Assembly: GCA_002308215.1 (NCBI GenBank) | Contig: DBVO01000023.1 | Location: forward strand, 40,754 to 73,309 | Direction of reading: 5' to 3' | DNA: 32,556 nt | Origin: Christensenella sp. UBA1262 | Lineage (GTDB): Bacteria > Bacillota > Clostridia > Christensenellales > CAG-917 | Shown: one piece after another, positions 3,626 to 30,439 of the stretch | Numbering within the stretch: the stretch's first letter is position 1 | Layout: every line of letters begins with the position of its first letter | Made by a program: the position numbers and the translations under genes | The notes under the pieces: generated by a model | What the model saw: the letters and a program-made list of their open reading frames with translations, nothing else | What the model was told of the DNA's origin: nothing | The model's database searches: none

Positions 3626-3631
3626 GGCTAA

Positions 3632-3660: not shown

Positions 3661-3761
3661 ACGCAAAATCATTGCTTTTTGTTGACTTGTATAAAACATT
3701 AAAAATTCTAAAAAAATTTTAAAATAAGCAAAGCTTATAAACCTCTCAAAATCGCCATTTT

Positions 3762-3777: not shown

Positions 3778-3833
3778 CAAAAACAACACATGTACGCTAT
3801 ACGTTGTGTATGCGCGATTGCGAAAGTTAAGTA

Positions 3834-3861
3834 TTGACTTTTTGCATTAGAGTGCTATAAT
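3834..3861 (+). promoter_or_regulatory. Near-consensus sigma-A promoter of the giant gene
   Basis: TTGACT (3834-3839) - 16 nt spacer - TGc (3853-3855) TATAAT (3856-3861), i.e. an extended -10. Predicted TSS is near 3866-3868, giving a ~55-nt leader ending in GGAGG (3913-3917) 5 nt before ATG 3923. Confidence 0.75.
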
Positions 3862-3922
3862 TATTATGTGTAATAATCTGCACATACGCGCATAATACGT
3901 GTGTATATGCTTGGAGGAGATT

Positions 3923-4000
3923 ATGAAAAAGCAAAAATTATTGCCAATTATCTTGCTGCTAGTACTGGTAGTCATTGCAGTCATCAGTCTTGCAGCATGT
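3923..4000 (+). other. Lipoprotein signal peptide with lipobox L-A-A-C (Cys26)
   Basis: MKKQKLLPIILLLVLVVIAVISLAAC has a Lys-rich n-region and a 17-residue hydrophobic core. L(-3) A(-2) A(-1) C(+1), with TGT at 3998-4000. It is followed by a Ser/Pro/Asp-rich linker (NPSSRQSSGGRQVIDKPDTPVNPTDDDD). Confidence 0.85.
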
Positions 4001-7000
4001 AACCCGTCCTCTCGTCAGAGCAGTGGCGGGCGTCAAGTTATTGACAAGCCTGATACGCCTGTCAATCCTACTGACGATGATGATATTGCGAACGAGAATT
4101 ATATTGGTTCGCAAGAAGCGTGGAGATTGTTGAAGGATTCAGCACTTGCTGCTTCAGCACAAGGTAAAGATGCTAGATACCTCAACTTCGACACATCGGT
4201 CAATTTTGGTTTTGCCAAAGACGTGTATAATGCTCAATACGTTCTTCGTATAGCAGGCAGCATTGACACGCAATATGACAGAACACAAGGTGACTCATCT
4301 AAGCTTCTCATTGAACTCAACCGTACGACAACAAACGTGTTGCCTGATGGAACGGTTGAAATAGTAGCAGATTCAACGGGTCCAGTTCTCAGCCTCTACT
4401 ATGTAAATGAGCAGATAGTCATTGACCTTGGTGGTTTGTCAAAAGGCGCGCACGCGGTTAAGACAAGTGACATTGACCTTACAGACCTCATCGCAAAACT
4501 TGATGGCATCATTGAGAGAATAGGTATCTCAGATCTTCTTTGGGATAAGATCTTTGGTTTGAACATTGGTACAGTGCTCAAAGAGCTTGCCCATATGGAT
4601 TTGGTCAACGTGACACTTGAAGACCTCATCGTCAACTTCTTGTTTGGTGCAAACAAGAGTCGTCTTGTTGATTTGGGCGAAGGACGTCAACAACTTCAAA
4701 TTCCTTGTGATCTTTCATTGATTGCAAGTTTGTTGCCACTTGTTCAAGGCCTCATTCCAGAAGATATATTTGATCTTATTGACAGAGTTCTCGGAATTGA
4801 TCTGAGAAAGATTAGTGCACTCAGCGGTATGGCACTCTACCTCCAAGCAGAAATTACCGATGATAAGCTCACAGGCTTAAGTGCAGATATTGATGTAAAC
4901 CTTAACTCCTTCGGCAGAGATGAAGTCATTAAGAGATATGGCTTATTCCAAAATGACATTGGCATCAACCTCGGTTATACTAGCGCATCATTTAGCAGTG
5001 CTCCAGACATCGATGTTGAAGCAGTCATTAATAATAAGTATTCAGAAGGCCTTGCAAATATTGAGGAATACTCCATCCTCACTCTTGATGCAAGGGTAGA
5101 TATTAACATTAACGCAATTACAAAGACAGTCACGATCGATAATATCGTTGGCTCTTTTGGCAATTTAATTACAAATCTTCTTACAAAGTATTTGGGCGAA
5201 GATATGTACAACAGTCTCCTCCCACTTTTCGCAAAAGAAATAGACTTTAATAGAGGCACATTCAGCTTGTCATTTGTATTGCAGGGCTCTATTAACACGC
5301 GCGATAATGCTAAGACAGAAATCATAGCAGAACTACGTTCTGAAGATGGTTCTACAGCTCTTGGCATCTACTACATTGGCTCCAAGAAAGCTGTTTATAT
5401 TGACGCAAGCCATCTTCTAACAGGTGTTAAAGAAGAAGATTCTTTGGGCAATATCAGCTTTGCTGGTGCAAAATTGAAGATTGAAAACATAGACCTCAAT
5501 GCAATTATTGATAGTTTGTTTGATAAATTAGGAAACACAATTATTGATGCAATCAATAACATTTCTATTTTCCAAAATACAAAGAACGAATTAGAGGGTG
5601 CTATTGCAAATAATACAATCATTATCCCACACAATGCTATTTCATCTGCGGATGATGAACAAAAGGTTGATACAATGGCTCTCATTAATATGATTCTTGA
5701 TTGTATTGATATTGAAATGGATGGCAATATCTTTAATATTACTGATATTAAGGTTGCTCTTACGAAAGATGTTATTGATGCAATTCTCGGGCTTGTCCTT
5801 ACAGGGGATAACGCAGGAATTAAGATACCAATTACAAATATTGATCTTGTTTTCGCAAACCAAGGCGTTACTAAGGTAAAAACATTTGGATTCGATCTTG
5901 GTCTTGGCGTTACAGAACCACTCGTTTCTCTTGACCTTACAGGTCAAATCCAATTTGGTAGTATTATAGACAAGGAAACCTTCTCTAGAAAGATTGGCGA
6001 TGTCATCTATGATGACGCAAGCTATATCGGTATTATGGAAGATGGTACACTTGATATATCCAAGTTCAATATCTCACTTAGCACAGGTTTAACACTTGAT
6101 TTGCAAACACTTGAAGGAAAGATTGGCGAAATTGACATTGATCTTGGACATCTTGGCATTGCAGATGACTTCCTCGCAGGCATGTATGCAAACATTTTGC
6201 TTACACTCGGAAACATCCAAGGCGGTCTTGTGGTTAACCTTGATGCAAGTATTGATTTGTCAACTGGTCTCACTCTTGACACTCTCCTTAATTCTCAAAT
6301 TAGACTCACAATCAATAAAGCAACAAATGGCGAACAAGTAGTTTATATTTGTTTGTCTGATGGTTATATCTACATTGACTTGTCAGTCTTGATGCTTGGC
6401 GTACAAAAGGTTAAGGTCAAAGTGTCAGACATCATGAATCTCGTCGGACAATTTACAGGCGAGAGTTCATCTGATGCTCTTGCGGCTGATGATGAGGGCG
6501 GACTCCTTGGTGGCATTGATCTTGGTAATATTGATATTATCGGACTTATCGCAACTTCTCTTGGTAAGATTAAAGTTACAGATGGATTTATCGAAATTGG
6601 TCTCGCAGCAGGTCTTATTGATAAACTTTTGTCAATGATCGGCCTTACTGGTATTGATATTAAATTTGAAAAAGCAGAAGCTGATGGTGGTATTCGTCTT
6701 GCTGTACCAGACAGCCTTGATCTTGATGATTTGCAACTCGAGATTTGGCTTGCTGTAGGTAGCAACATGGACTTCACAGTTTCTCTTGATGGTTTCAAGG
6801 TTGGTCTTGTAGATGTTCCACTTGGCCCAGCAAATCCAGATGAATTTACAGATGTTTTAGATGCTCCATATGTCTCTCTTGATCTAGGTCTTGGTTTTGA
6901 CTTCTATGGTGATGAAGGAACATCAATCTTTGAACTTGGCGATGATAACAATGTCGCACTTGTTCCATTTACATTCAATGACCCAATGACTTTCAACTAT

Positions 7001-10000
7001 AAGTTGAGGGTAGCAGGCGATCTTGACTTAACACCAGTTCTTGACTATTTGTTTGGTGCAACATCAATTAACACAAACGATAACACCAGTGAACTTCTTA
7101 TTGAAATCTCTGGTTCTAAGTTTGGCGGCAACGAAAAAGTGTTGCTCGGCTTGTACTATACTGGTGGTACACTTTATATTGATGCAGAGAACTTTGGTAT
7201 AACCAAAGTTTCAACTGATATTGACTTGTATGAACTCATTCTTAATTTGTTGATGAAAGACGTCAACATAAAAATTAACGATGTTGGGCATACGGTTGCA
7301 GAAGCACTTGCAGCAGGCGACGAAGAAGATCAAGCGGCTGCAAGACGTGAAATCTTCTTTGAAGTGCTTACATTTATCCAATCAGATTATGCAAAGGTTG
7401 AAGTAACAAGGGGTATTACAGAGGCAATCTTTGAAATCTTTGGTATTGATACAAATAACGCAATTGCATATCTCAACTTTGCATGGGATAAATTTGAAGA
7501 ACATAATCATAGAAGCTTTGAATTTACAGGTGCAATTTATAATGAAAATGCACAATATGTTGGCGCTGCAACAATTTATGCAGATGATGATTTAAGCGTC
7601 AAGATTGTTAACGCACTTGAAGGTCTCTATATTAAACATAATGTATATGACAGAGATGACAATCTTGTTGTTGATGATAATGGTTTGCCAAAGGTATTTG
7701 CACTTTCAGAATATGTTCTAGCAAGCAATGTACATGGTGGATTTGATGAAATTGATTTGTTCAATTCCAGCAAAGATATTGTACTCCCAAGTATTTTCGT
7801 AGAGTTGAAGGGTACAATTTCACTTGGCGCAGCTGCAGGTAACGACGAATGGACTATAGGCGAATGGATTGCAAACTTCTTGGATGCAGAAGATAATCCT
7901 GCACTTTATACCTTCATCGGCGATTTGTTGCTCCAATACAATATTCCTTCAGATGTTGCTAGAGATTTTGGATTCCGTATCGCATTAAAGGCAAGACTTA
8001 ATCCAGAAGTTCCTATTAACCTTACAGCAAACATTAAATATGTAGAATTAACTCAAGATAACCCTTCATATACTGAAGTTTATAAACTCGTTAGAAACGA
8101 GTTCAAACTCTTGTCTGATGAAGAAAGAGCATCATTTGATGGCAAGATGTATGTTAAAGAATACTTGCCAGAGGGCATTCCTCTTGAGGAACTCAAGAGT
8201 CTCGAAGGTCTTGAAGGTGATGTAAAGGTTTATGTTAAAGTTGGCGATAATTTCAGAAAAGTTGATCCAACAAGAGTAGCAGATGGAACAAAGATGTATG
8301 TTGCAAAGAATTTGTTTGATTTAACATATATCCTTTCACACTCCGATCTCGCTATTGAAATTTACAATAAGCATATTGATTTAGTCGATGCTATGACTTC
8401 TCAAACTGAAAAGAATGCTGCAACAATCCTCGCATTGCGTCTTGTCGCTAGCGAGAATGGTTTGAGCACGCTTTATCTTGACTTCAGAGATGATTTCCAT
8501 ATGGCAATCGACAATTTGAATCTCGGAGAACTTTTGGGCAGTTTGCTTTCACTCGTTGGAAACGATGAAAAGAAAGATAATAATGCTACATCATCAGCAC
8601 TCCTTGATAACTTTGATACATCAGATTTGCTCGGAACAATTAAGGGCATTTTAGCAGGTGTTATTTATAGCATTAACGCAGACAAACAAGGCTTCAAGAT
8701 TAACTTCGCTGAGGGTCTTGTGACAATGCTTGTTAATATGCTTGCAGGAAAACAAATCCCAGCAGATCAATTTATTAAACTTAACACAGAAACAAGCTTC
8801 TTTGAGTTCTATTGGAAGTATGCACTTAATTTGAGTCTTGGGATTGATCCTCTCAAATTTGCAATTGGCTTGTCTCAATTGAAGCTTGAACTTGGCGGAA
8901 GCGCAAGCATATTACCAGATGATTTCAACAAGTCTAATTACATGACAATTGACCAATTAGACGAATTCTCCGTCAATATGGCACTTAATGTAGACTTGGT
9001 AGTAAAGAAACAACCAGAACAAATTCGCATTGAAAAGTATCTGGATGTTCTTATTGCAGATCTTGGATTGAAACTTGGTATTGATTTCCCTAAAGACCAT
9101 GACATTACTTATGGTATTGGTTTGACGCTCGGCGCAAATCTTGCCCTTAACAATGCAGAGAACACTAAGATTGTTCTTGAACTTTTGAACACAGTTGAAG
9201 ATGAGATTATAGCAGGCTTCTATATCAAAGGTTCTGAATTGTATATTGATATGGGCAAATTGTCTAAACAAGCAATTTATGTAAACAACACAGATCTTGC
9301 TGATCGTATCTGCGCATTTATTGTCGAACTTATGGGTAGAATAGGTGAGGATGCAGATGCTGTAACATCTGCTGATACAGATCCAGCGCAAGAACTTGAA
9401 ATCATGCTTAACATTGCAAATGGTAAGCTCGGATTGCTTGTTACTGAAAATGTTATCCTTGGTCTCATTGCAGCTCTTGCTGGTAATGATGAGATTGCAA
9501 ATGGTAAATCTATCACAGAAATCATTTCAGAATTTGGTCTTGATCTTTCTCTTAGCGCAGATATGGGCCTTGACCCAGTTGAGATTAACGTTGATCTTGA
9601 CAGTAGTTTGATTGAGCTTGGCATCAGAGTAGAAGATGTAGGTATTGCAACAGGTTCACACAACGCAACAAGTGATACAATTGCTGCAAAACTTGAAGCT
9701 GCAATTACTCGTCAAGACTATGTCTTGCTTACAGATGAAGAGAAGGCTGCTATTGGGGCTGATGCAACCAAGAGATATAACTATGATAGCGGTACAAATA
9801 GTTATGTAAACGATCCATATGGTGATTATCAACTAAAGGATCATTTCAAACAACAAGCAGATACTCACGTTATTACACTTGATCTTGGCATCATTGTTGA
9901 CTATAGCGCATGTGCAACATATGCTCTTGTTGATGAAACAACACTTGCAAATTACCCACTTAACGAAAGATATTCTAAGAATGTACATGATGGCAGATTT

Positions 10001-22000: not shown

Positions 22001-25000
22001 TATGTTCCATATTATAGTGGCATGGGCACTGTTGCGAATACCAACCGCTTCGTATCATTGCATATCGAGCTCAACCATAGAGCATACAATGAATTGTTAC
22101 TCTTCGTTTATACACTTGTTCTTAACTTGTTTAAGGATAAGATCGATGATGGCGATATAAACGGTGGTTATAAGTACTTCGTTAATAATGGTTCATTAGA
22201 GAGCACATCATGCGCTGGCGTATTGGATGGTCTTAACACAAGATATAAGACATATGTTAATAACCCAACTGATGCTAACTTTAATGCAATGGTCACATAC
22301 ATGAAGAATTACATCAGTGGTATTCCATACACACTTGAACACTTCTTGATGCAATGTGTCGTTATGCCAGCTATTAACATGAACTTGTATGGTGCAATTG
22401 ACTTGGTTGAATGGGCAGAACATGCGCTTCAAAATATCGCATCACTTATTGGTACACTCTTGCCAATCCCATTCTCAGAAGGAACATATAATCCAAATAT
22501 TAACCTCTACATTGACTTGAACCCAACTGCAGCAGATTATGGCCGCAGCGGTAAAACAATGTTGCCAGGTATTCAAGCAATTGAAATCATGGTCAACTGC
22601 AAGAAGAATGGTACTGGTACAGGTATGACAACAGGTACAAACTATTGGTTCTTGCGTATCAATCCACTTAGCGCTGAAGATTCATCAATCAAGACTGGTA
22701 TGCTTGCATTTAATGAATCTGCAGAAGCTGCTGAAACTGATATTAACCTTGGTGATGCATATATCACAATTACAGATCCAGCAACAAGAGAAGGTACACT
22801 TACTGCAAGTGGTAGCACAAAGAGCATTGAGCTCAGAGACGCGTACTTAACAGATAAGAACTACTTCCCACAATATGCGGATGTCACATTCTTGCAGAAA
22901 GATGGAGGCAACTACTTACATTCCTACAAAGAAGGTAGTTATAAAGCATCTCGTGGTACGAGAATCGTTTGGGATGCTTCATCAGTTGACCTAACACCTC
23001 CATCAGCAGAATCAAGTGAGACAAGAAGACTTGCTGGTTATGTATATGGTTATGCTCTCAACACAGTCATGTATGCAATTCCAGTCTACGTGACAGATGG
23101 TAGAACAGTTACAGACGTTAAGTCTTATACATACGATAGTGCTTCTGGTAGCTGGAAAGCTAAGAAGATTAAAGTTGATATTAACGAAAATGCAAAGATC
23201 TTCGGCAATCAATTGCCAGACTTAGTACAACTCGTATTCAATGATGGCGCTAAGATCTTCGGCACAGTCCAAGGCGGATCAGCACTCATTGGTACGAATA
23301 TTAATATCAATAATGTAACAAATAATACATTTGAGTCTACTAAGACCGAAACAGGTGTTAAGGTTTACACAACTGTTCCTGCATACACTGCAGCTCTTGT
23401 AAAGAATCCAGATGGAACATACTTCAAGTACTCACCAACAGATGACCCAGGTGAATATTATGTTGTAGATCGCAGCTTGTTGCCACCATCATCCAACTAT
23501 CCAGCTGGTATCATTACTTGGGATACAAGCAATTATAAATATGATTGGAAGGGTGCAACAGATAAATCTGGCAAACTCGAAATCAGTTATACATATCAAT
23601 GGGGCTTCAGTGCAACATGTAAGGGAACAATTGAAATTGACACAGTCAATTATGAGATTGAGACACTTAATAAGTTCTCATTCGTAAATGGATCATCTAT
23701 CAAGTCGCTTGATAATCTTGATGCATTTGCTTTAACAGCAGATCAATCAGATCTTGAGGCATACATCAACAACATTAAGACTGTAAGCGGTACAACAACA
23801 GGCAATGGCAAGATCACAAACATGAGCGTTAAGTGGGATCTCACAAATCTCAGAAAGGCAATTGCAGATCTTGGCAAAGATGCAGATAATCATACCAATT
23901 ATTACAAAGGTCTCGATGTAGAAGTAACAGCATATGTTGGCGGCGATGTATTTAAGGTCATCTCCGTAAAAACTGATGCAGAAGATGGCGGACTCCTTGG
24001 CGGCGGCAGCAGCGCAAATGAATATGGATTTGTAGGTAAAGGTTCAACAGATCCAAATTATGCAACAGCAGGCCATATTGCTCAAGCTTTCAAAGTTAGA
24101 GTAAAAGTTAAACCATACACATATGATAGTATCCCTGCAAAGGGCGCATTGGTATTTGATCCATATTCAGCAGAGCAAATCAGCGGTGCATCATTCTCAG
24201 TTGAGCGTCAAATCAACTTTAGAAATGGTACAAGAACTGCAACTCCAAAGAGTATGAATGAAAACCTCCTTTCAATTGATGCTCCATACTTCTATGTTGG
24301 TGGTGAATACATCAACGCATATGGCAATGGCCTTAAGATTGGTGATATTACTTATAACGGATATAGTGGCTCAAGACTTTATGCAAAACTTACAATAGGT
24401 ACAGCATACAGCGGCAAACAAGTTGTATATGCACCAATCACAATTAATGCATTGAAGCAACAAGTTACACCATTAAGAGTTGGACATGAAGATGTATTTA
24501 ATCCAGAGTGGTATAGCAATGTATCTGTAATCGAAAATGTCTCATTCGGCAGTGGTATCGTTCACGATATGGTGCCAGATTGGACAACAATTAAATACTT
24601 CAAAGAACAAAATGCAAAGACTCCACTTGCTAATATCTATGCAGGCGGCACAGTTTTTGCACAAGTCAAAGCATACGTAAAAGATGGCAATACAAATATT
24701 GGATGCCCGAAGGATAAAGATGGAAATGATATTCCACAAACTATTACTCTTAAACTTACTGTTGAACAACAGAAGATAACAAATGTTAAATTCTTCTATA
24801 ACAATGGTTTGCAAGGTGGCAGAGATATTTATAGCACTAAGGACGGAGCACCTCTTGTTTCAACACTTAGCGAGTCAGTCCTTAAGAACCCAGATAACTA
24901 TGTCGGTACAGTCTATGCACAAACCCATATGGTTAACATGACTGCATATGGTATTGATCCACTCAACTACGTATTGCATCCAGAAGATTACTTCAAGATT

Positions 25001-28000
25001 GGTGATTGGGGCGATGTTGTAAATGGTACAGCAGTTCTCGTTGAACTTGAGAGTGGTGATCCTTATATTGGATACTTGCAAGATGTTGTAATCGCGATTA
25101 GAGATAAGGTTGAAGGTATTGAAACAACAATCTATGGTACAATCGGCGGACAAAATGTTAAACTTGCAGTTCATATGCCAAACTACACATTCACAGGTGT
25201 TACAGCACTTGATGGTAGCTCAACGCTTTCATTAAGAGGTGGCGATCCAAATCCAACATCACTTGCATTTAACTATAGTGCACTTGATGCATGGAGATTG
25301 CCAGAATTTGCAAGATTCACAACAGTAACTGGCCCAGATGGCGGTGTTGTTGCAAATATCACATGGCTTAATGAAACATCACCATCCATTGAAGAACTCA
25401 ATGAACATGTTGACGCAGGCGATCACTATGTAATTAGAGAGTATCGCTTCTTCGATGGCACGAAGTATCAAACAGATATTTATCAAGCAAGAATCTACGT
25501 TACAAATTATGACAAGAACGCAGATAGCATTATACTCAATGGTTTGAACACAGTTTATACACCATTCACAGAGTATAGCTTGCCAACAACAGCAACAGTT
25601 ACATATTCTGGTGGTACAGCAGAAGAAGTCCCAGTAATTTGGAATGATTACAGCACTCCATCCGAAGAAGAAATCAACGCAGGAGCATTTACAAGAAAGG
25701 TCTTCGTTGGTGGTAATATGAGAGCAGCTGGTTGGTCACAAGATATAATCTTCACAGTAGACAAGCAATTTGAATTTAAGTCAGCTGAAGGATTCATAAC
25801 AAATGGTTCTAATATTAGTTATGTACTCTCAGCAGACAACTTCTTCGAAGGCTTGCCAAGATCTGGTAAGGTTGTTGTTGGTGGCGGAGAAGTTGCAGTT
25901 GAATACTTCTGGGATATCACTTATAATGCACAAGGCTACGAAGGGGAAGTCAATCTCTATGTAAAGAACGAATATCTTGAAATCGCTGTTCCAGTTGCAC
26001 TTACTGTTGAAGGAGCAACTATTGCAGGCTTCAAGAAGGATGATGGTAACAAGCTCAAGATAGACCATTATGGAGTTGAAAGCACATTCTTCAAGTCTGG
26101 AACAGAAGCAATGCTCATAAGCTCCACCGGTGAAGATGTTGAAGTTCTCGGAACTTATACATTGCCAGCAGACTTCTATTCCAATGCAGCTAAGTACTTC
26201 GGTAAAGTTTTGAATGTAACAGTTACATTCAGCTTCAACGGAGGAAGGGAAGATGTCTTAACAGAGACATTGACAGAGTCTGTATATGTAATAGATAGAT
26301 CTGCTAAGTACATCTCTGAATCTGCATTCCGTTCAGTAACGATTGACCCATTCTATGAGAACAGCATCGCACGTCTTGAAGAAGCAAATGAAAACGGTCT
26401 CCATATCACAGTATTTGCAGATGAAACTTCATTTAATGAGTTCGAAGCAGATGTTGATTGGTCAGGCGTTGCAAAACTCTTGAAGAATCAAGACAGCGAT
26501 TATCTGTATTCTGCTAAAGTAACAACAGTTGTAGATGGTGTACAAGTTGTACAAAGCGTGGTTATCCCAGTGACAATCATGAACCGTACAGTTGTTGACA
26601 CAGACTTCAACCCAGAAACAGAAGGCAAGGATTGGGAATTCTTGTATTCAGACACAAGTAAGTCTGCAACTACAACAGATACATATCGTAGCAACCATGG
26701 TGAATACTTCAATATTGTGTTCTCAACAAAGGCTGGTGAGTATCCAGAACAATTCATCTTTGAGAATCAATTCTCATATAGAGGATTAGCATGCTTGCCA
26801 TCACAAATTGAATTCACATTCGAAAATGATGAAGTTAGACATTATGCATTAACTTACGAGAATGTTCCAGGATTTGCTGAAGTATCTTTGAATTCTACAA
26901 CACGTCGTACAATTAAGCTCAACATTTGGAGCGGTGAAGAAGATGACGCAGCTGTAGAACCAGCAGGCGATGGCAGTGATGGAAGATTTATCTTCAATAC
27001 TCTTGAAGTAGAACTTGTTATCCGCCCAGTTCAGATTACAATTCAAAATTCTGATCTTGCATATAATGATTGGGATATAGAACATGTTTATGTACATGAC
27101 CTTAACCCATATGCATCGGAAGCAGATTCAGTATTTGGATCAAATTCTGGATTCCCAGATACAACAACATACTATGTAGGAGGTACATACATCAAACTCT
27201 CCAAGTGGACATCACAAGGTGACTTTGGCGACAGTACTAACACAGATTGGAAGCGTATCCACTCAATCTACTATGCTCTTGGTACATATAGCAATGCAGC
27301 AAGTGCATCTGCAATAGCAGCGGATGGCATGTGGTTATACGCAAAGGATGCTGTTGGTGATGGTTATCATATTGCATATGAATATGATTGGGAAACAGAA
27401 AGACTTGTAGTCAAAGAAGATGAGGCAACAAGCACTAAGTATTATGTAAACCCACTCAGATACAGATACAATTCAATCAATAGAACATACAAATTAGATG
27501 ATACAGTATCAGATGAAGATGCATATATCTTTGTGTATGTTGTAAAACAAACATTGGATGTTGAGTGGGATCACACTGGCGTTGCATATACTTATAAGGG
27601 TGGTGTTGTTTATACATCAGCTAAGGTCTCAACGTCAGATCAAGATAACAAGACAGAAGCTACAGTTAAGGTACCAATCCATATTGCAAATGCTAAGGTT
27701 CAAAGTATAGATTTCGCTGCGCATACTAGTGGCACAACAGGGCGCTTCTATAGAGCAGTGGGCAACTACTTTGAGATCTATCCATATGATTCAGTTGTAA
27801 ATGGCAATTTCTTCGAGAGAGTTGGCGGTTACGATGTCAGCATGCGTTATGCAAAGAAAGATGATGGCACGTTTGAACTCGATGAAGAAGGCACATATAA
27901 GTATGTTGATGGTGAATATGTTGAACTTACCTACGCAGAACTCGGTAACTACAAGTACTTCCCAAGTGTAGGTACAATTACACTTACAGATGGAACAACA

Positions 28001-29206
28001 ATTGACGTGCCAGTTCAATGGGATTTCAGCGGTGTTAACGTGAGTTATGCAGGTGGCACATTCACAGCATATGCATATATCAATGGTGATGGTGGATATG
28101 ACTACGAAAGAGCAGATGGTACAAAGAACGAAGTTGGTGCTCAAAAGGTTAAAGTAACTATTACCGTTAAAGATGGCGAAGCAAAATCAATTGTTGCTAG
28201 CGTCAACGACACAGCAAAAGGCGTTGTATATAACCTTGCAACAATCGATGGCATCATTTACAAATCAGATAGTTATATTAACCCATATGAATATGTTGAG
28301 CCAACAATGCCTAATGCTTTGAGAGTTAAACTCGCAGACGAATCCACAAAGGATTATAAAGTTGGGGCAAAGACCAATTCTCTCACATGGAACTTCTCAA
28401 CGTTCCGTCCAACATATCAAGGTGGCGTAACAAATGTAACAGCAATTCTTGTTGGTGAAGATGGCAGCGTACAAAAACTTGAGATACCATTTAGAGTTTA
28501 TAAGATGGAAGTTAAGAATATAACATCTTCTGCTTATACAACTACTATTACAAATGGTAGCGCAGATACGGATTATACAATCAATCCATATGATGGAACA
28601 ACATTGGCATTGCCAACAAGCTACACTGCAACATTTGCAACATACAAGCCAGTACTTGATTCAAACAACAAGGTAGATGACTTTACTGCAACAACAGATA
28701 AGTCTAAGACATTCTCATATGTTATTGTATCTATGCCAACAGCGTTAACATGGGATATTGCAGCTAGTGGTATTACATCAGAAGGTAATGGCAAAGAAGC
28801 AACAATTCAATTTGCAAATCAACAGAGAATTAATGTCAGACTTGCAGTTGCAGCAACAACTTCAATTACATCTGAACCATCACTTACAGCAAGTGCATCA
28901 ACTCTTACAACAAGAGTAACAGTTGGCGGAAAGAGCGTCCCAGTTGTTTGGTACGGCACAGCACAAGTATATGCAACAGATGGTTCAACAGTTATTGCAA
29001 CATATAATGTAACGCTTTCAAGCACTGGTTCATCAATGGCTCCACCTTCAGTAAAGGGCAGAACGATAAAATACACATTGAAGGCATATGTTGGTGCAGT
29101 TGTTAATAAGAACGGTAATGTTGTAACAACACAAAAAGTTGGCAACGCGGATGTTCCAGTTGGACAATATGTCACAGGCAATAAGACAGTCACTGTTACA
29201 GCCTAA
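3923..29206 (+). CDS. Giant (8,427-aa) N-terminally lipid-anchored, acidic surface protein: 13-14 diverged modules of unknown family plus a C-terminal Big_4-like Ig array
   Basis: The reading frame is open for 25,284 nt, with TAA at 29204-29206. The ORF-track start at 3899 (MCICLEEI) is rejected in favour of ATG 3923, which has the GGAGG site and starts a canonical lipoprotein signal peptide. The modular grammar is consistent along the whole ORF. There is no LPXTG, SLH or other recognisable C-terminal anchor; the C-terminus is ...GNKTVTVTA. Confidence 0.9.
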   Translation: MKKQKLLPIILLLVLVVIAVISLAACNPSSRQSSGGRQVIDKPDTPVNPTDDDDIANENYIGSQEAWRLLKDSALAASAQGKDARYLNFDTSVNFGFAKDVYNAQYVLRIAGSIDTQYDRTQGDSSKLLIELNRTTTNVLPDGTVEIVADSTGPVLSLYYVNEQIVIDLGGLSKGAHAVKTSDIDLTDLIAKLDGIIERIGISDLLWDKIFGLNIGTVLKELAHMDLVNVTLEDLIVNFLFGANKSRLVDLGEGRQQLQIPCDLSLIASLLPLVQGLIPEDIFDLIDRVLGIDLRKISALSGMALYLQAEITDDKLTGLSADIDVNLNSFGRDEVIKRYGLFQNDIGINLGYTSASFSSAPDIDVEAVINNKYSEGLANIEEYSILTLDARVDININAITKTVTIDNIVGSFGNLITNLLTKYLGEDMYNSLLPLFAKEIDFNRGTFSLSFVLQGSINTRDNAKTEIIAELRSEDGSTALGIYYIGSKKAVYIDASHLLTGVKEEDSLGNISFAGAKLKIENIDLNAIIDSLFDKLGNTIIDAINNISIFQNTKNELEGAIANNTIIIPHNAISSADDEQKVDTMALINMILDCIDIEMDGNIFNITDIKVALTKDVIDAILGLVLTGDNAGIKIPITNIDLVFANQGVTKVKTFGFDLGLGVTEPLVSLDLTGQIQFGSIIDKETFSRKIGDVIYDDASYIGIMEDGTLDISKFNISLSTGLTLDLQTLEGKIGEIDIDLGHLGIADDFLAGMYANILLTLGNIQGGLVVNLDASIDLSTGLTLDTLLNSQIRLTINKATNGEQVVYICLSDGYIYIDLSVLMLGVQKVKVKVSDIMNLVGQFTGESSSDALAADDEGGLLGGIDLGNIDIIGLIATSLGKIKVTDGFIEIGLAAGLIDKLLSMIGLTGIDIKFEKAEADGGIRLAVPDSLDLDDLQLEIWLAVGSNMDFTVSLDGFKVGLVDVPLGPANPDEFTDVLDAPYVSLDLGLGFDFYGDEGTSIFELGDDNNVALVPFTFNDPMTFNYKLRVAGDLDLTPVLDYLFGATSINTNDNTSELLIEISGSKFGGNEKVLLGLYYTGGTLYIDAENFGITKVSTDIDLYELILNLLMKDVNIKINDVGHTVAEALAAGDEEDQAAARREIFFEVLTFIQSDYAKVEVTRGITEAIFEIFGIDTNNAIAYLNFAWDKFEEHNHRSFEFTGAIYNENAQYVGAATIYADDDLSVKIVNALEGLYIKHNVYDRDDNLVVDDNGLPKVFALSEYVLASNVHGGFDEIDLFNSSKDIVLPSIFVELKGTISLGAAAGNDEWTIGEWIANFLDAEDNPALYTFIGDLLLQYNIPSDVARDFGFRIALKARLNPEVPINLTANIKYVELTQDNPSYTEVYKLVRNEFKLLSDEERASFDGKMYVKEYLPEGIPLEELKSLEGLEGDVKVYVKVGDNFRKVDPTRVADGTKMYVAKNLFDLTYILSHSDLAIEIYNKHIDLVDAMTSQTEKNAATILALRLVASENGLSTLYLDFRDDFHMAIDNLNLGELLGSLLSLVGNDEKKDNNATSSALLDNFDTSDLLGTIKGILAGVIYSINADKQGFKINFAEGLVTMLVNMLAGKQIPADQFIKLNTETSFFEFYWKYALNLSLGIDPLKFAIGLSQLKLELGGSASILPDDFNKSNYMTIDQLDEFSVNMALNVDLVVKKQPEQIRIEKYLDVLIADLGLKLGIDFPKDHDITYGIGLTLGANLALNNAENTKIVLELLNTVEDEIIAGFYIKGSELYIDMGKLSKQAIYVNNTDLADRICAFIVELMGRIGEDADAVTSADTDPAQELEIMLNIANGKLGLLVTENVILGLIAALAGNDEIANGKSITEIISEFGLDLSLSADMGLDPVEINVDLDSSLIELGIRVEDVGIATGSHNATSDTIAAKLEAAITRQDYVLLTDEEKAAIGADATKRYNYDSGTNSYVNDPYGDYQLKDHFKQQADTHVITLDLGIIVDYSACATYALVDETTLANYPLNERYSKNVHDGRFVKDPKGHYVRNGFTYNEIIEQILRLPALADILSTALPVVRFGGENFVSTETDGSLTVGALLQHLGLNVFLDSAIDDGFLIDIGIKIDLEKLGIFEEGTDELKEIDKIHITGPNILRAIELKIEVDFDYDKAKPASEHAKVGIYFADGELFLDLSGIGSEKIKIEVQPIFDLLGFDLSTFDFSLGSIVDTVKDALASADEEEPGILDGLVDRFTDVSGIISIVNSAITRIQLQAEQWAKNPLLYKIKDLSIFFSANIVNDLLSLLVGDEIFFESSILDETQSGIFFNLDDDSFADVYADDMWSLRLLFALANKEDVNADPLAEDKTYKIDIKLGLNLGVQFESIQTAESLVPNSKRLEFISLDEYLENLLNVFNGIYECTYDEETDPAEDQIYYTFSENKADGDYIVKNRTFRKIIPGEGIAEDTMRYTRGFALVNSGIVYNVNFVQNDEGNYEYDAENDIYVAYAGAGANNRYNAQIDVALGENVKLYNRNDLETYTDQNISLSIAGLIYFNTSGVETYNIGNLVSNLLGEMLMELKTLEAFNNGIGFKLSLNLDLAAIDFGALLGGDFDLMEFITESDFTKIELALELIELDEYNAFKKIRKSDGTLQDRVLGGIYMSHGSLYLDATELVNVAENYSRIDNFMDLVAVVIDKGKNAIDSLKNLFGGSEEEAQTAAESEEEILHDAILALVYSDTAFQIQITRSIISLLIASILPDLGSIDEIFDMFDISLNIKHGEEVFSKISDIEDAEFRAKFEDEYKADKYAYFADEDYSEEDNVNGKYAAANIGGIERYLPINVYKLYHEETIDAKTVMVANENNAFIDGKTNYITYNGTFYEVINLRTRRIGYVKDPDVAISDAYYRSTRYYSRLDEFFVGLDIAVGSMNLGFEVGGISFGFGAGQTLLPDYIRDSKAHTYIDEHGDELVYNALDPDAIERTEDLSTNPFYDTVIRVAFSVEIDFSITESIFDFGKILHNILGDINGVVFEAPHTAKHFSSAHFRLDFSLMLDMYDITNSELKVELIAITETGYESKWLGLYYLNNALYIDAEEFFNIPKIAINGLNIRDMLFQLIGEDIFIDWDEIGASSAEALAADDGIDFSNKELALAILISKNNLAIGIGDKLFDYIIGLLTDLTNIDFESIIYTAIDGNLAVTLNTEDGIDLEAAAGLNIAGDRYNVVGDVENYHDEILANLKNDNAKYYIFEEEDPTPGSQAGYYIESDNAQYYRAVTPVDPAGKRYVRYEVVLNNAQDSFKKRMVLDLDEKGIPQYGPEVNVQNADMVYALTEGDSVNKAYVADGGKYDIDLKLVLGIRDLDVQFINSRNYALTEEDLDKYTSLNDLDRISLSETIELDASLKKSETDERENDIDLSELIEYFLPGISSEEVITLISASSDSGKDVDRKFWLTVTVDIQLSALMNYLRTTKFDMGTEEDPDAITYVTKLIDGIKGLLDGGFSLDKVLDIVLDVASYIGISIVITTQNGQEREKGIEPHTVFGIYLVGGSYKLMSANEYVEADDDYVSPDFRYSHYYENSKGSYIYDGHNFVYNHDPNYIGTRYSFDSSYCYRNPLGEYKRENGGIYIDLSYFNLPSLVINSKTMRNLVANLPNLIASFTSSDAQVADEDEEESSGGLSLPLIDDTVSEYLKTFIFGLRMTSSYIALMLNPDYINQILKLIGGEDFTLQFGYDFVNKPEVKIYADNHRYKYLSTDEILAEVKAAKEAYDVDPTTENRDAWQLAVAEVEKLFNNTRYRFTVEKVDDIDDGMYWIDEDGAYALKTDMTVSERKNYDREVEAGTKFYYNVSTIDTYVKVGTDYVKYVNATTAQMRSVENNAQLYSLYGVTFPQLYLLTTDYEPVDEILAAQLYCVDVLAERNPLIGIQLYLWNYEVALNIKMPNIKADEFIYITGADAIAAHVDAPIAARYATESKELLTAVDRVQDGLYQWKADYYTADAFDVVKYNANPRQYEYKNKYYIIDGTTLCTIDTDNKYIPVGAPIPDYMYEIAENGAVYYIHVPDEGYFKLQRSFVYRLTKYDLDGKRLLSVEEASSSEFEDPTSYYVRDVQTSAITIPDFSTSAYDAYAYDDFIDTDDVFYVSMKLAGRIAFEGGKMYFDYDKYRTLYNADPLHTLTLGPTDLDITNDEWAMLRLISFKYFHGDYVQVTDRAEANQLKKDGELFIWANSELGEKYDGVNEPLNQVLSGILGSMQGYFQVTEKTKMEIFFEIKLNMSFEINFTPAFNIIVRDLDLAIDAWGRQEDLKTNPLTTDEDDYEYVTAEERKNYSGELFYGSLTHVLGIYYSNDHDTGEAGLYVDLSWLLGNGGKIYIDLSEYTIEDVISGLVGDLLGGNSSDALAADDEVVYQSPDDASLYLSIFTNALALELSTSFLKVLIAELAPDSGNILDMLPNAKIYLKQTLNPYDLTLGLLLYNEKGTVPVLDVKLQVFGLNGNGTDESSYVDFGREEEFRARENIEEPSYIFYYANFYSDNENGNFAKNGVYKGYMPASNVDFTLKPDGNYKKVADEYVALSREELTSYTGDRYAANASYERLSLSEKEFVPVLEKSRYAYGSVWQDQYNGYLYDVNGNVLFDNQLYRDIVDTRVFHEYTGPLYIMNVHENNKLEYVTKLNLTGFTAEGDLQYILKDQAPTELVDACVANGIGTLTLRGVECYPVDYNGDGTTDRDEADRIANSVTVYKAVQNFTDYTRVGAMNLNDIINGISGGNFEIASLLEGFDTFNTVELNLNIDLGLRLKDVINWTNIMTEFIGDSAIAETVFFLATSLTADDHSFESTIGLDIALHLYINVQSLLNALMDEDGFDLVKGLEGSKIFAEIVYNTNFHGDDKPKMKLWIEIEDGKLNGYIDMKEIGEIVGLGDYFSYGLVEGVDVNNLLSQVSGLLGGLGSASTEALATADDEEIVSTGVLPENIWNIVNAIIGRLLIADDFVTIGLDENLMNGLIKLLIGGDNDDLVDIIALLPHLRTTNDRNTSGITINFYGTAPTIDLNFGWVVGKEYELEVSEYNAKYGVHGSQHDGENIVANQAGIAFDSEGKVIVSTKEYALKGFAYPSWAGDSYKWDGEEFVVDAAGKYLKLGDFNLFVSIYGLTADVNKPFTYGTAQETMMRDEFDNDISDQFVKFEDAHFGIDLAIGVAIYGSGPAGDANIIDLSEMLDLILGLVAPNSAISGSTLRLNIVNELGYSDRDFVTLNIKAYISNNKFNLDPANGELFNVQAAITLVLHRDSGDKILLGAYLDHDNVYLDLSEILGETAKISITNLGVNKLLAELLSGLVQANDASEAMAAGADEIAYIESTMMDVPYVFIKVNPRKILLQLNADVVNAVYKKIMAIRGQEQKNLIPDIGDLMLKSYTDADGTHLSLNLRFSDGFYACLSIPTLKLTKAAPSGLTISDAEKLEYQEAITSDASKGGLVGGGDLEVKLSTIGLHLGMNITMTSENHLESSEPELYNKSLFGWLEKTLASLLSGTEAVGSFVALSSAELETYTGKRYKIVYNEDPQGLYKKSGNNYVRIATSTSEWTSTTLTRYSQSYVEDEEGTYKFVMADMSFTFTSTPIEIFIDLKANVNLPAILQYGIAGILFSDLALEINMGAPINKTFMKLYYLGSSRLTDTPAEGLRHQLTATDTGVYSDAIYIDATGLGLGKIKFQGLAGLLGAQPGGPIADAHTASEGNSAADQAAAAAALFLEISLENGRTSVTFDKSLLEFAIGLLNLDLPFDLPDLQSVDLSLISDGGNLNEINLNALLDTVGTAANIQIKPITLGFGSGFLDRESLVDEVKTGYAGITYSKTAGLFSLIQNVLDGLNPGLYIEVQNNISEYVSSGTGSVTSSSGTSNVKLRLNKAYNEIKNGEKHYMLAATIVATHPKASKTLNASLNIGSNNIYVTGLDFLSGLGDAIVGWLIPLALEDDNTSFIDNLLTWVDDNGNEQKGLVRGIDGDNGTWSYPKNTPGSSGGGSQEKIDGIKHTAPDGKTVTYSYPLELKNLVKKLEVNLFNNNGYVPYYSGMGTVANTNRFVSLHIELNHRAYNELLLFVYTLVLNLFKDKIDDGDINGGYKYFVNNGSLESTSCAGVLDGLNTRYKTYVNNPTDANFNAMVTYMKNYISGIPYTLEHFLMQCVVMPAINMNLYGAIDLVEWAEHALQNIASLIGTLLPIPFSEGTYNPNINLYIDLNPTAADYGRSGKTMLPGIQAIEIMVNCKKNGTGTGMTTGTNYWFLRINPLSAEDSSIKTGMLAFNESAEAAETDINLGDAYITITDPATREGTLTASGSTKSIELRDAYLTDKNYFPQYADVTFLQKDGGNYLHSYKEGSYKASRGTRIVWDASSVDLTPPSAESSETRRLAGYVYGYALNTVMYAIPVYVTDGRTVTDVKSYTYDSASGSWKAKKIKVDINENAKIFGNQLPDLVQLVFNDGAKIFGTVQGGSALIGTNININNVTNNTFESTKTETGVKVYTTVPAYTAALVKNPDGTYFKYSPTDDPGEYYVVDRSLLPPSSNYPAGIITWDTSNYKYDWKGATDKSGKLEISYTYQWGFSATCKGTIEIDTVNYEIETLNKFSFVNGSSIKSLDNLDAFALTADQSDLEAYINNIKTVSGTTTGNGKITNMSVKWDLTNLRKAIADLGKDADNHTNYYKGLDVEVTAYVGGDVFKVISVKTDAEDGGLLGGGSSANEYGFVGKGSTDPNYATAGHIAQAFKVRVKVKPYTYDSIPAKGALVFDPYSAEQISGASFSVERQINFRNGTRTATPKSMNENLLSIDAPYFYVGGEYINAYGNGLKIGDITYNGYSGSRLYAKLTIGTAYSGKQVVYAPITINALKQQVTPLRVGHEDVFNPEWYSNVSVIENVSFGSGIVHDMVPDWTTIKYFKEQNAKTPLANIYAGGTVFAQVKAYVKDGNTNIGCPKDKDGNDIPQTITLKLTVEQQKITNVKFFYNNGLQGGRDIYSTKDGAPLVSTLSESVLKNPDNYVGTVYAQTHMVNMTAYGIDPLNYVLHPEDYFKIGDWGDVVNGTAVLVELESGDPYIGYLQDVVIAIRDKVEGIETTIYGTIGGQNVKLAVHMPNYTFTGVTALDGSSTLSLRGGDPNPTSLAFNYSALDAWRLPEFARFTTVTGPDGGVVANITWLNETSPSIEELNEHVDAGDHYVIREYRFFDGTKYQTDIYQARIYVTNYDKNADSIILNGLNTVYTPFTEYSLPTTATVTYSGGTAEEVPVIWNDYSTPSEEEINAGAFTRKVFVGGNMRAAGWSQDIIFTVDKQFEFKSAEGFITNGSNISYVLSADNFFEGLPRSGKVVVGGGEVAVEYFWDITYNAQGYEGEVNLYVKNEYLEIAVPVALTVEGATIAGFKKDDGNKLKIDHYGVESTFFKSGTEAMLISSTGEDVEVLGTYTLPADFYSNAAKYFGKVLNVTVTFSFNGGREDVLTETLTESVYVIDRSAKYISESAFRSVTIDPFYENSIARLEEANENGLHITVFADETSFNEFEADVDWSGVAKLLKNQDSDYLYSAKVTTVVDGVQVVQSVVIPVTIMNRTVVDTDFNPETEGKDWEFLYSDTSKSATTTDTYRSNHGEYFNIVFSTKAGEYPEQFIFENQFSYRGLACLPSQIEFTFENDEVRHYALTYENVPGFAEVSLNSTTRRTIKLNIWSGEEDDAAVEPAGDGSDGRFIFNTLEVELVIRPVQITIQNSDLAYNDWDIEHVYVHDLNPYASEADSVFGSNSGFPDTTTYYVGGTYIKLSKWTSQGDFGDSTNTDWKRIHSIYYALGTYSNAASASAIAADGMWLYAKDAVGDGYHIAYEYDWETERLVVKEDEATSTKYYVNPLRYRYNSINRTYKLDDTVSDEDAYIFVYVVKQTLDVEWDHTGVAYTYKGGVVYTSAKVSTSDQDNKTEATVKVPIHIANAKVQSIDFAAHTSGTTGRFYRAVGNYFEIYPYDSVVNGNFFERVGGYDVSMRYAKKDDGTFELDEEGTYKYVDGEYVELTYAELGNYKYFPSVGTITLTDGTTIDVPVQWDFSGVNVSYAGGTFTAYAYINGDGGYDYERADGTKNEVGAQKVKVTITVKDGEAKSIVASVNDTAKGVVYNLATIDGIIYKSDSYINPYEYVEPTMPNALRVKLADESTKDYKVGAKTNSLTWNFSTFRPTYQGGVTNVTAILVGEDGSVQKLEIPFRVYKMEVKNITSSAYTTTITNGSADTDYTINPYDGTTLALPTSYTATFATYKPVLDSNNKVDDFTATTDKSKTFSYVIVSMPTALTWDIAASGITSEGNGKEATIQFANQQRINVRLAVAATTSITSEPSLTASASTLTTRVTVGGKSVPVVWYGTAQVYATDGSTVIATYNVTLSSTGSSMAPPSVKGRTIKYTLKAYVGAVVNKNGNVVTTQKVGNADVPVGQYVTGNKTVTVTA
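4388..21150 (+). repeat. Array of 14 highly diverged protein modules (about 260-730 aa each), each closed by a conserved junction cassette; protein-level repeat only
   Basis: ...YY/...YID-type cores at 4388-4435, 5357-5404, 6338-6379, 7145-7183, 8462-8482, 9212-9250, 10418-10456, 11837-11878, 13100-13138, 14723-14740, 16865-16963, 18521-18565, 19709-19750, 20813-20920. Acidic Ala-rich hinges at 5642-5659, 6467-6496, 7298-7330, 8561-8617, 9347-9394, 10574-10603, 12002-12043, 13253-13285, 14834-14872, 17027-17056, 18683-18724, 19850-19885, 21011-21061. In 12 of 13 cases the hinge starts 21-41 residues after the YID/YLD core. Confidence 0.75.
17996..18037 (+). other. Single EF-hand/dockerin-like Ca2+-binding loop D-Y-N-G-D-G-T-T-D-R-D-E
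   Basis: DYNGDGTTDRDE fits the 12-residue loop pattern D-x-N-x-D-G-x-x-D-x-x-E. It lies in the context LTLRGVECYPVDYNGDGTTDRDEADRIANSV. Only one such loop was noticed in the protein. Confidence 0.45.
22859..29203 (+). repeat. C-terminal array of roughly 15-17 diverged Ig-like units of the Big_4 type
   Basis: The pattern (L/F)P..(a).V.(f/y)..G......V.W(D/N)....(v)....G.Y......(v) recurs. Examples: LPTTATVTYSGGTAEEVPVIWND (25580-25648), FPSVGTITLTDGTTIDVPVQWD (27959-28024), FPQYADVTFLQKDGG...RIVWDASSVDL, LPRSGKVVVGGGEVAVEYFWD, MPNALRVKLADESTKDY...LTWNFS. Assignment to PF07532-like domains is from memory of the consensus, not from an HMM search. Confidence 0.6.
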
Positions 29207-29230
29207 GGTCAAACAACTAAATAATTAACT

Positions 29231-29254
29231 CAAGGGCGTAGCAATACGCCCTTG
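29231..29254 (+). terminator. Strong hairpin (10-bp stem, GCAA loop) without a U-tract, 3' of the giant gene: partial terminator or 3'-end stabiliser
   Basis: CAAGGGCGTA-GCAA-TACGCCCTTG is a perfect 10-bp stem 25 nt after the stop codon. It is followed by AAAATCAAATATC, which is A-rich rather than T-rich, so it is not a canonical intrinsic terminator. Confidence 0.5.
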
Positions 29255-29302
29255 AAAATCAAATATCAATAAAAATACATACGTTTTGGAGGAAGCAACA
29301 AA

Positions 29303-30433: not shown

Positions 30434-30439
30434 CGCGTT

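Follow-up and report, generated by a model that had tools for sequence, protein, structure and literature searches.

On a 32,556-nucleotide stretch of the genome of Christensenella sp. UBA1262 (GenBank assembly GCA_002308215.1, contig DBVO01000023.1, positions 40,754 to 73,309 of the forward strand), we have identified a single, intact gene for a protein of 8,427 residues. Its product begins with a lipoprotein-type signal peptide and lipobox, its first two thirds are built from 13-14 strongly diverged homologous modules, and it belongs to a conserved family and has been kept under purifying selection. We consider it probable that this protein is a giant surface fibre or adhesin, attached at its N-terminus by a lipid, of an uncultured lineage of Clostridia from gut and rumen, a reading that draws on the putative lipid anchor, the size, the beta-rich modules, the distal immunoglobulin (Ig)-like Big_4 segments and analogy. 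The whole stretch of DNA is called the window here; positions are counted within it, and features lie on its plus strand unless stated otherwise.

A single, intact gene

The giant open reading frame (ORF) occupies 3923..29206 and comprises 8,427 codons plus a stop. The frame is open from an upstream GTG (3899..29206 in the ORF list), and translation from the ATG at 3923 meets a stop only at its end. Given the base composition of the window, a stop is expected about every 15 codons, and the probability of 8,427 codons without one is about 10^-260. A ribosome-binding site, GGAGG (3913..3917), can be read directly from the sequence 5 nt 5' of the ATG, and a consensus scan places a putative sigma-70-type promoter with an extended -10 element at 3834..3861 (TTGACT-16 nt-TG-n-TATAAT), where 11 of the 12 consensus positions agree and a TG precedes the -10 hexamer. 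A preliminary description of this DNA, made from its letters alone, had already reported the uninterrupted frame, the GGAGG and the near-consensus promoter, and all three are as it claimed. The encoded protein has a mass of 929 kDa and an isoelectric point (pI) of 4.4; Asp and Glu make up 14.7% of the residues and Lys and Arg 7.6%, giving a net charge of about -601, so that its earlier characterization as acidic is borne out. It is also poor in cysteine, as had been noted, although the earlier estimate of about 20 beyond the lipobox was slightly high: there are 18, and 19 in total.

Mis-joins in contigs of metagenome-assembled genomes (MAGs) can create giant ORFs, and one long-read orthologue of the giant contains frame switches, as would be expected if the gene were an assembly artefact, a fusion or a decaying pseudogene; this explanation is effectively refuted by an independent assembly of the same structure, by seven independent full-length orthologues that are colinear with the giant, and by purifying selection. 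The Logan assembly of SRR5324889 covers window positions 19303-32556 without a gap and differs there by 8 substitutions (99.94% identity). The giant is called in it as a fragment of 6,787 residues, cut off at the contig end, and the assembly also contains the gene downstream of the giant in the window. Searches of the giant ORF found no tandem repeats and no direct DNA repeats longer than 58 nt, and mis-assembly is unlikely because there are no DNA repeats able to mislead an assembler. The uniformity of codon usage, which had been judged by eye, is confirmed by measurement: each tenth of the ORF correlates with the whole at 0.89-0.96 and with the flanking genes at 0.67-0.81, compared with 0.07-0.16 in an off-frame control.

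Selection was measured against the closest orthologue, L002 from the rumen MAG RUG767, in 500-codon tiles covering residues 23-4,600. The rate of nonsynonymous change (pN) was 0.14-0.19 in every tile, against a synonymous rate (pS) of 0.76-0.90, and we conclude that strong purifying selection acts along this part of the gene. Tiles of 400 residues are colinear from residue 1 to the C-terminal end in seven full-length orthologues (7,286-7,924 residues; 23-45% identity). At 30 of 32 GTDB loci the giant frame stays open to the end of the available sequence, and at 28 of the 32 it spans at least 4,496 residues; one of the two exceptions follows a scaffold gap of Ns and the other lies in an error-prone long-read MAG, L017. 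The gene is thus single, intact and real, and the earlier argument that it is neither fused nor mis-assembled holds on every one of these lines of evidence.

Lipoprotein signal and tether

Residues 1-26 (3923..4000; MKKQKLLPIILLLVLVVIAVISLAAC) have the layout of a lipoprotein signal peptide of the type cleaved by signal peptidase II (SPII), namely a basic n-region, MKKQK, a 17-residue hydrophobic core, LLPIILLLVLVVIAVIS, and the lipobox L-A-A-C, in which Cys26 is the putative lipidation site. The segment agrees with the lipobox pattern [LVI][ASTVI][GAS]C together with its n- and h-regions, and no other segment of the protein is strongly hydrophobic (Kyte-Doolittle value above 2.0). Lipobox and cysteine are present at all 31 frame-intact GTDB loci and in all 21 long family proteins inspected, in the form (L/M/F/T/I)(V/A/T/I/G)(A/G)C. 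They are retained even where N-terminal identity is about 25-45%, and Cys26 is an invariant column in alignments A1-A3. The canonical lipoprotein signal reported in the preliminary description is therefore confirmed as a pattern and kept across the family, and an N-terminal lipid anchor is plausible on this basis. In the lipoprotein pathway, a protein is exported by Sec, its cysteine receives a diacylglyceryl group, signal peptidase II cleaves the signal peptide, and the product stays attached to the cytoplasmic membrane at its outer leaflet. Neither lgt nor lspA lies within the window.

The lipobox is followed by a tether rich in Pro, Thr and Asp (residues 27-60; 4001..4102; NPSSRQSSGGRQVIDKPDTPVNPTDDDD). 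Orthologues have PVIPTPTPxPD-type stretches at this position, and a low-confidence AlphaFold model of residues 1-1,200 gives the tether no secondary structure.

No other means of anchoring was recognized. The motif [LN]PxTG is absent from the whole protein, the only match to LPx[TSA]G being LPRSG at residue 7,311, far from the C-terminus; the chain terminates in ...KTVTVTA with no C-terminal hydrophobic segment. Pfam scans found no SLH, CWB2, choline-binding, LysM or SH3b domain (whole protein at E ≤ 0.1; C-terminal 330-residue tiles at E ≤ 5) and no RTX domain. Motif, hydrophobicity and Pfam scans thus agree with the earlier observation that signals of the LPXTG, SLH, choline-binding and type 1 secretion system (T1SS) kinds are lacking.

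A modular region with a phase-locked linker motif

Residues ~61-5,720 (4103..21082) consist of 13-14 divergent homologous modules of ~260-720 residues each. Self-comparison of the whole protein by BLAST returns nothing except the identity match, whereas comparison of tiles reveals weak internal similarities of 25-45% identity. A hidden Markov model (HMM) iterated from one of these similarities converges on 13 cores of ~73 residues (E 1e-26 to 6e-5), with a weaker fourteenth near residue 1,494. In order along the gene, the cores lie at 4343-4561, 5315-5533, 6299-6517, 7100-7318, 8402-8620 (the weak one), 9167-9385, 10373-10591, 11795-12013, 13055-13273, 14657-14875, 16820-17038, 18476-18694, 19667-19885 and 20837-21055. 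They follow the pattern LGlYYxxGxLYIDxxxxG..K(I/V)....(I/L)(D/N)Lxx(L/I)(L/I), roughly, and are spaced 255-721 residues apart. Module alignments extend the homology beyond the core to the full core-to-core length, with shared blocks that include a strand-helix element, xIEIxLxxxLIxxLLxLL, and the strands GGIRLxL, PxVSLDLxLGFDF, FxYxLRVAGxLDL and SELLIEL. The same core HMM finds 5-11 matches in each orthologous giant.

Identity between paralogous modules is only ~15-25%, which is why they escaped the first reading of the sequence, repeat logic of the Pfam kind and DNA repeat finders alike. The statement that the first two thirds belong to no nameable family is upheld by our searches, with the addition that this part is made of diverged homologous modules, which had been missed. 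Tile BLAST and DNA repeat searches also support the earlier contrast with Ebh, SiiE and LapA, in that near-identical tandem domains are absent. The proposal that one architectural grammar runs the length of the ORF is only partly right; the modular organization reaches residue ~5,720, while residues ~5,720-8,427 are different and beta-rich.

Each module also carries a short motif in an acidic, Ser- and Gly-rich linker, once per module and phase-locked 54-72 residues past the start of the core. The first copy, SDALAADDE, is encoded at 6470..6496; further copies lie at 7298-7324, 9353-9379, 10571-10597, 12008-12034, 13259-13285, 14837-14863, 17030-17056, 18692-18718, 19856-19882 and 20999-21025. 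Variants include SDALAADDE, AEALAAGDE, TEALATADD and similar sequences, with the general form S-D/E-A-L/V-A/T-A-D/A-D/E. A regular-expression search gave 10 occurrences against 0.024 expected in shuffled sequence; modules 1, 2 and 5 have a weak copy or none. It is the only element that keeps similarity between paralogous modules at the DNA level (repeat families D2 and D3), and orthologues preserve it as (S/T)(E/D)A(L/V/I)(T/A)A(A/D)(D/E/G). It could possibly be a site of processing, modification, metal binding or docking.

A model of one module was obtained with AlphaFold2 (m1ac04d8e0cd9; target residues 781-1,138) from an alignment of 35 core-to-core paralogue and orthologue segments. Its best-predicted part, residues ~983-1,120 (6869..7282; predicted local distance difference test (pLDDT) 78-86), is modelled as eight antiparallel beta-strands in an up-and-down meander, with short helices; the strands are 4-14 residues long, and six of the eight measure 9-14. 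The acidic linker has a pLDDT of 31-44, and the motif falls in this lowest-confidence stretch, which is predicted to be disordered. The model suggests that the linkers separate structural units, as in beads on a string.

A distinct C-terminal region

Beyond the last module, residues ~5,721-8,427 (21083..29203) form a region delimited by tile composition and colinear with the orthologues. It is beta-rich and less acidic, contains more Ser, Thr and aromatic residues, and is not made of the N-terminal module; the core HMM has no matches past residue 5,710.

Within it lies a conserved junction domain of ~430 residues (residues ~6,010-6,440; 21950..23242), delimited by the conservation profile and alignment A9. 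Few parts of the protein are conserved as well: the six orthologues aligned in A9 share 52 invariant columns. The domain contains in order the motifs NLFNxNGYxPY, LLPxPFASYD, PGIQAIELMVN, IVWDASSVDLT and RLAGYVYGYALN. The domain has no match in PDB or Pfam.

The following stretch, residues ~6,600-7,400 (23720..26122), is variable and partly lineage-specific (occupancy 0.30-0.66, identity 0.08-0.18). Five of the seven full-length orthologues that are otherwise colinear lack it, the tiles starting at residues 6801 and 7201 match only P0015 and P0032, and it accounts for much of the extra length of the present protein. Two segments of the distal region match the Ig-like family Big_4 (PF07532). 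One, at residues ~7,216-7,279 (25568..25759), scores 26.8 and 30.2 bits (over residues ~7,216-7,256) and is also matched by an internal HMM; the other, at residues ~8,001-8,095 (27923..28207), scores 22.6 and 24.7 bits (over residues ~8,001-8,055). Both pass the Pfam gathering threshold of 22.1 bits, and together Big_4 covers less than 2% of the protein. Related motifs (V-x-W-D/N-x-S ... Y-x-G-G) occur a few more times, at residues 7,869, 8,020 and 8,144. Since residues ~6,600-7,400, with one Big_4 segment, are missing in most orthologues, the distal region appears to gain and lose domains between lineages.

The C-terminal end itself is conserved (residues ~8,200-8,427; 28520..29203), with the motifs LPTxY, MPS, VVWYGTA and YxLxAYxGAVV and the ending ...TVTVTA. 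The conservation profile gives it an identity of 0.34 at an occupancy of 0.93, and the last 600 residues contain 35 invariant columns in the seven-orthologue alignment A7.

Searches of family and structure libraries

Pfam was run on ten overlapping 940-residue tiles and on ten 330-residue tiles of the C-terminal third at E ≤ 5; across all tiles it returned Big_4 alone. NCBIfam gave nothing on the ten 940-residue tiles, and neither half of the protein, run with phmmer on the sequences in PDB, had a match at E ≤ 1. Three profiles, made from the module (A4), C-terminal (A7) and junction (A9) alignments, likewise had no PDB match at E ≤ 10. Orthologous fragments (P0024, P0028, P0029, P0040 and others) and the C-terminal 3,200-3,300 residues of two distant orthologues yielded, overall, no more than one weak Big_4 match in Pfam. 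Searches of Pfam, NCBIfam and PDB sequences thus did not turn the first two thirds of the protein into a known repeat family. With the module model, Foldseek found no PDB entry at E ≤ 0.001 (best E 0.36, template modelling (TM) score ≤ 0.14, probability ≤ 0.10) and no significant match in BFVD (best E 0.018, TM score 0.10).

Family, hosts and gene neighbourhood

A profile search of 1.84 billion cluster representatives (50% clusters) returned 74 matches at E ≤ 0.001. None of them is named, and many are fragments broken at contig ends. Full-length relatives measure 5,800-7,924 residues, the window protein being the longest member seen. One weak match in this search, P0067, was set aside as an unrelated repetitive Laminin_G_3 protein. 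A word-indexed search added a few entries labelled 'hypothetical protein, partial [Clostridia bacterium]', and two further homologue searches gave 6 and 8 proteins. Comparison with phage and plasmid collections by tblastn found no match, and searches of the literature found no description of the giant family.

A scan of one genome per GTDB species located 34 species with a giant locus. Their labels are mostly uncultured Clostridia or Clostridiales, 'Christensenella sp. UBA...', Firmicutes bacterium CAG:475 and CAG:238, with a few bins labelled otherwise. According to record titles the genomes come from cattle rumen (RUG), water buffalo reticulum and human gut (UMGS, HGM, Hadza), and from MGBC bins, whose prefix we take to mean mouse gut. 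One host is represented by a complete long-read chromosome of 1.65 Mb (L017, CP091723.1), and the giant gene would make up ~1.5% of such a genome. The family can be described by a lipobox, colinear core modules with acidic linkers, a junction and C-terminal region, and flanks encoding acyltransferase_3 and SPFH proteins, all of which the window protein has.

Three genes precede the giant in the window: those for a GH127-like protein of 649 residues (66-2015), a bPH_2 protein (2027-2596) and, transcribed away from the giant on the minus strand, an acyltransferase_3/HGSNAT-like membrane protein (2651-3625), all assigned by Pfam. They keep the same order wherever enough sequence is available, with all three present at 23 of 35 related loci. 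The acyltransferase gene adjoins the giant at 33 of the 35, and in the window a ~300-bp intergenic region (3626-3922) lies between them. The match of the 66-2015 product to GH127 beta-L-arabinofuranosidases is below threshold (20.2 bits, cut-off 24.9); this protein is 60-82% identical across nearly all related species and is a conserved, poorly annotated, enzyme-like protein in its own right.

Downstream, Pfam identifies an SPFH/Band-7 protein with double zinc ribbons (three zinc-ribbon units; 29303-30433) and a zinc-ribbon protein of 355 residues (30440-31507). Both genes also lie 3' of the giant in the distant metagenome loci L037-L040, at 60-63% and 49-51% identity, respectively. In those loci an extra permease gene, absent from the window, stands between the giant and SPFH genes; it is of the Mem_trans/SBF type (L037 9862-10977; L038 10166-11200). 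The preliminary description had proposed defining the taxonomic range and conserved neighbours of the gene, and with 34 GTDB species of uncultured gut and rumen Clostridia and conserved flanks this is a small, real family and not a one-off. The N-terminus of the giant is 38-45% identical between loci, as against 60-66% for the GH127-like neighbour. With neighbours that have diverged less than the giant itself, the synteny may be due to the stability of this part of the genome and not to a functional unit.

Some further features lie around the ORF. A near-perfect palindrome, TTTTCCACAAT-ag-ATTGTGGCAAA, is found at 3758-3781, 5' of the putative promoter of the giant gene, and an inverted repeat (3809-3829 / 3874-3894) with an 8-bp perfect core (TATGCGCG / CGCGCATA) flanks the two promoter hexamers (-35 and -10). 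Palindrome and inverted repeat alike resemble operator sites; as an exact pattern, the palindrome was not found in related loci. A terminator scan reported a GC-rich hairpin with a 12-bp stem at 29229..29256, 23 nt past the stop codon, which was scored on the minus strand and does not satisfy the T-run criterion on the plus strand. Rfam and tRNA scans of the window gave no matches.

Comparison with known giant proteins

The nearest described analogue in kind is the set of Giant1-5 proteins of Apilactobacillus kunkeei. These are surface proteins of 3,000-8,000 residues, encoded in a 1.5-Mb genome, modelled as elongated rods and proposed to be adhesins (PMC12863079). They are built from novel repeat units, have no transmembrane segment beyond the signal and have no dedicated secretion system nearby (PMC12863079). 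They are proposed to attach through a positively charged, SH3b-like C-terminal end and to bind through an N-terminal beta-solenoid; their stalks consist of alpha-helical repeats (Giant1-3), arrays of beta-sheet domains (Giant4) or a single helix (Giant5) (PMC12863079). The resemblance lies in huge surface proteins made of new repeat units in a small-genome Firmicute from an animal-associated, carbohydrate-rich niche. The polarity, however, is opposite: compared by description, the window giant has a putative N-terminal lipid anchor, beta-rich modules with acidic linkers and, in Pfam, neither SH3b nor beta-solenoid, and it is one gene where A. kunkeei has a cluster of five.

A survey of giant genes reported Clostridia giants composed of RCC1, Listeria-Bacteroides, YG and dockerin repeats (10.1101/2023.11.21.568195). 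Pfam detects none of these in the window giant. Among the better-known giants, Ebh, SiiE, LapA and BapA are acidic, fibre-like proteins of several thousand to ~10,000 residues, with Ig-like domains in SiiE and LapA. Ebh consists of tandem FIVAR-GA domains with a C-terminal membrane anchor, and LapA and SiiE combine BIg repeats with type 1 secretion and an N-terminal retention module. The window protein shares their size class, acidity and Ig-like domains; it differs in having modules of ~15-25% identity, no DNA repeats and a lipobox, where they have near-identical tandem domains.

Assignment to several of these classes was tried and rejected. An RTX or T1SS adhesin of the LapA, SiiE or BapA type is contradicted by the lack of such Pfam domains and of near-identical repeats, and by neighbours unrelated to T1SS. 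The Ebh type was dismissed for want of FIVAR, GA or DUF1542 domains in Pfam and of a C-terminal hydrophobic segment, a sortase-anchored LPXTG adhesin for want of the motif and of that same segment, and a wall-bound surface protein for want of any SLH, CWB2, choline-binding, LysM or SH3b domain.

Surface lipoproteins of bacteria with a single membrane offer the n-region, hydrophobic core, lipobox and flexible Pro/Thr-rich tether seen here, and differ in being typically a few hundred residues long. We know of no characterized lipoprotein that approaches 8,000 residues, although no systematic search was made for one. With Big_4-containing surface proteins the giant has two above-threshold segments in common, and the rest of it lies outside any Pfam family. 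By sequence, the only memberships that appear to hold are those of a bacterial lipoprotein, by its signal, and of a Big_4-containing protein, by two short segments.

Proposed function and alternatives

As a surface fibre or adhesin, the protein would be exported by Sec, lipidated at Cys26 and freed of its signal peptide, so that it would hang by its N-terminus from the outer face of the cytoplasmic membrane, with a short Pro/Thr/Asp tether after the lipidated cysteine. The next ~5,700 residues, with 13-14 beta-rich modules and flexible acidic linkers, would form a long anionic stalk through and past the wall. The distal 2,700 residues, comprising the junction, heterogeneous beta-rich and Big_4 domains and the conserved end, would then face outward as the exposed ligand-binding part, whose most plausible targets would be surfaces of the host, the diet or microbes. 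Lipidation, extension through the wall, a C-terminus-outward orientation and adhesion are in this sense predicted properties of the protein. A surface location is supported by the faster divergence of the giant relative to its neighbours and by indel-prone zones in the conservation profile, and such fast evolution with indel-prone zones is typical of exposed surface proteins.

Several points weigh against this reading. The adhesin role draws on two weak Big_4 matches and on analogy, and nowhere in the protein did the searches recognize a lectin, an enzyme, a known stalk or any other domain for binding ligands. A chain of 929 kDa must thread through Sec, and no dedicated accessory secretion genes adjoin the giant. 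The AlphaFold2 model of residues 1-1,200, built from 7 sequences, was unusable (mean pLDDT 35) and that of the module is of moderate confidence (mean pLDDT 62.9), so that an extended rod shape is hypothetical. Finally, the MAG L017 (CP091723.1, locus 10001-23694), the one long-read assembly available, has two frame switches in 13.7 kb of the orthologous giant; since the neighbouring GH127-like gene likewise matches there only in truncated form, these are probably indel or read errors and not signs of pseudogenization.

A different role, which we regard as rather unlikely though deserving of serious attention, is that of an envelope scaffold: a wall-spanning anionic matrix or coat that organizes or protects the wall, binds cations or replaces an S-layer, and has no specific external ligand. 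The extreme negative charge and the conserved acidic linkers would suit such a role, as would a conservation that is fairly even over the length, with no hypervariable tip. The presence of the giant in all 34 species within a fixed neighbourhood, including the acyltransferase_3 membrane protein and the SPFH protein, also points this way, but that synteny may simply mark a stable region, as discussed above. Pfam scans, moreover, revealed none of the wall-binding domains SLH, CWB2, LysM and SH3b, and the Ig-like segments and conserved distal end suit binding at least equally well.

The linker motif raises the question of a polyprotein, in which the motifs would be processing sites and the chain would be divided into at least a dozen surface proteins, each about one module in size, of which the first alone would keep the lipid anchor. 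The motif has the regularity expected of such sites, occurring once per module at a fixed phase where there is least structure; no other element is as well conserved between paralogous modules, even in DNA, and orthologues keep it too. Its small residues at -3/-1 (A-x-A or A-x-T) also resemble peptidase recognition sites. Even so, we find this improbable: no protease gene is adjacent, the freed modules would have no visible means of retention at the cell, the motif fails or fades in modules 1, 2 and 5, and a conserved helix cap, metal site or modification site would explain it equally well.

It is more doubtful still that the giant is a toxin-like or contact-dependent delivery protein with a beta-sheet scaffold like the delivery domain of large clostridial toxins. 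The extended antiparallel beta-sheets of the module model recall the delivery and receptor-binding domain of TcdA, TcdB and TcsL, and TcsL, TcsH, TcdB and TcdA take 9 of the 50 top PDB ranks in Foldseek, far below significance (E ≥ 0.36, TM score ≤ 0.14, probability ≤ 0.10). There is no sequence similarity to these toxins, the domains typical of them (glucosyltransferase, protease, pore-forming, CROP) are all absent from the Pfam results, and the anchoring logic is another one, a lipid-anchored N-terminus being ill-suited to a released toxin. Large clostridial toxins were rejected as a class for the same reasons.

Least probable among the functional alternatives is a bridge-like lipid-transfer protein with a repeating beta-groove of the AsmA, TamB or VPS13 kind, spanning the envelope from its N-terminal anchor. 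The likeness lies in an N-terminal anchor and, after it, very long series of amphipathic beta-strands in repeated units with a loop. Pfam matched neither AsmA, TamB (DUF490) nor DUF748 in the window protein or three orthologous fragments, and an AsmA-like bridge was rejected with no match to Chorein either. Foldseek found no significant PDB match, the moderate-confidence model limiting this test of the fold. Acidic linkers come between the modules, the modules include helices, the distal third is of Ig-like character, and no outer membrane is known from this lineage.

Implications

Giant surface proteins are already known; what is new here is the combination of an apparent N-terminal lipid anchor, the resulting polarity and the extreme divergence of the modules. 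The family is an unannotated and deeply conserved one of giant lipoproteins, as judged by their signals, whose main building block is unmatched in the sequence libraries searched, with one module model unmatched in structure libraries. Its members are intact, colinear and under selection in at least 34 species from human, mouse, cattle and buffalo. Because so costly a gene has been kept across the group, it is likely to be central to the gut lifestyle of these bacteria.

The family also offers a defined target: for structural studies, as the fold of the module is probably new, for proteomics of the envelope, and for attempts at cultivating or visualizing the lineage. The linker motif, acidic and fixed in its phase to the core, is a well-defined feature that lends itself to testing. 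More tentatively, and with odds that we place clearly below even, the N-terminal 5,700 residues may represent a new fold and module family that forms a lipid-anchored, beads-on-a-string organelle with functional linker motifs for processing, modification or docking. If this is true, the organelle could be the key device, for attachment or in the envelope, that sets the way of life of a whole uncultured, small-genome lineage, for instance by fastening cells to glycans of the host, to plant fibre or to other microbes.

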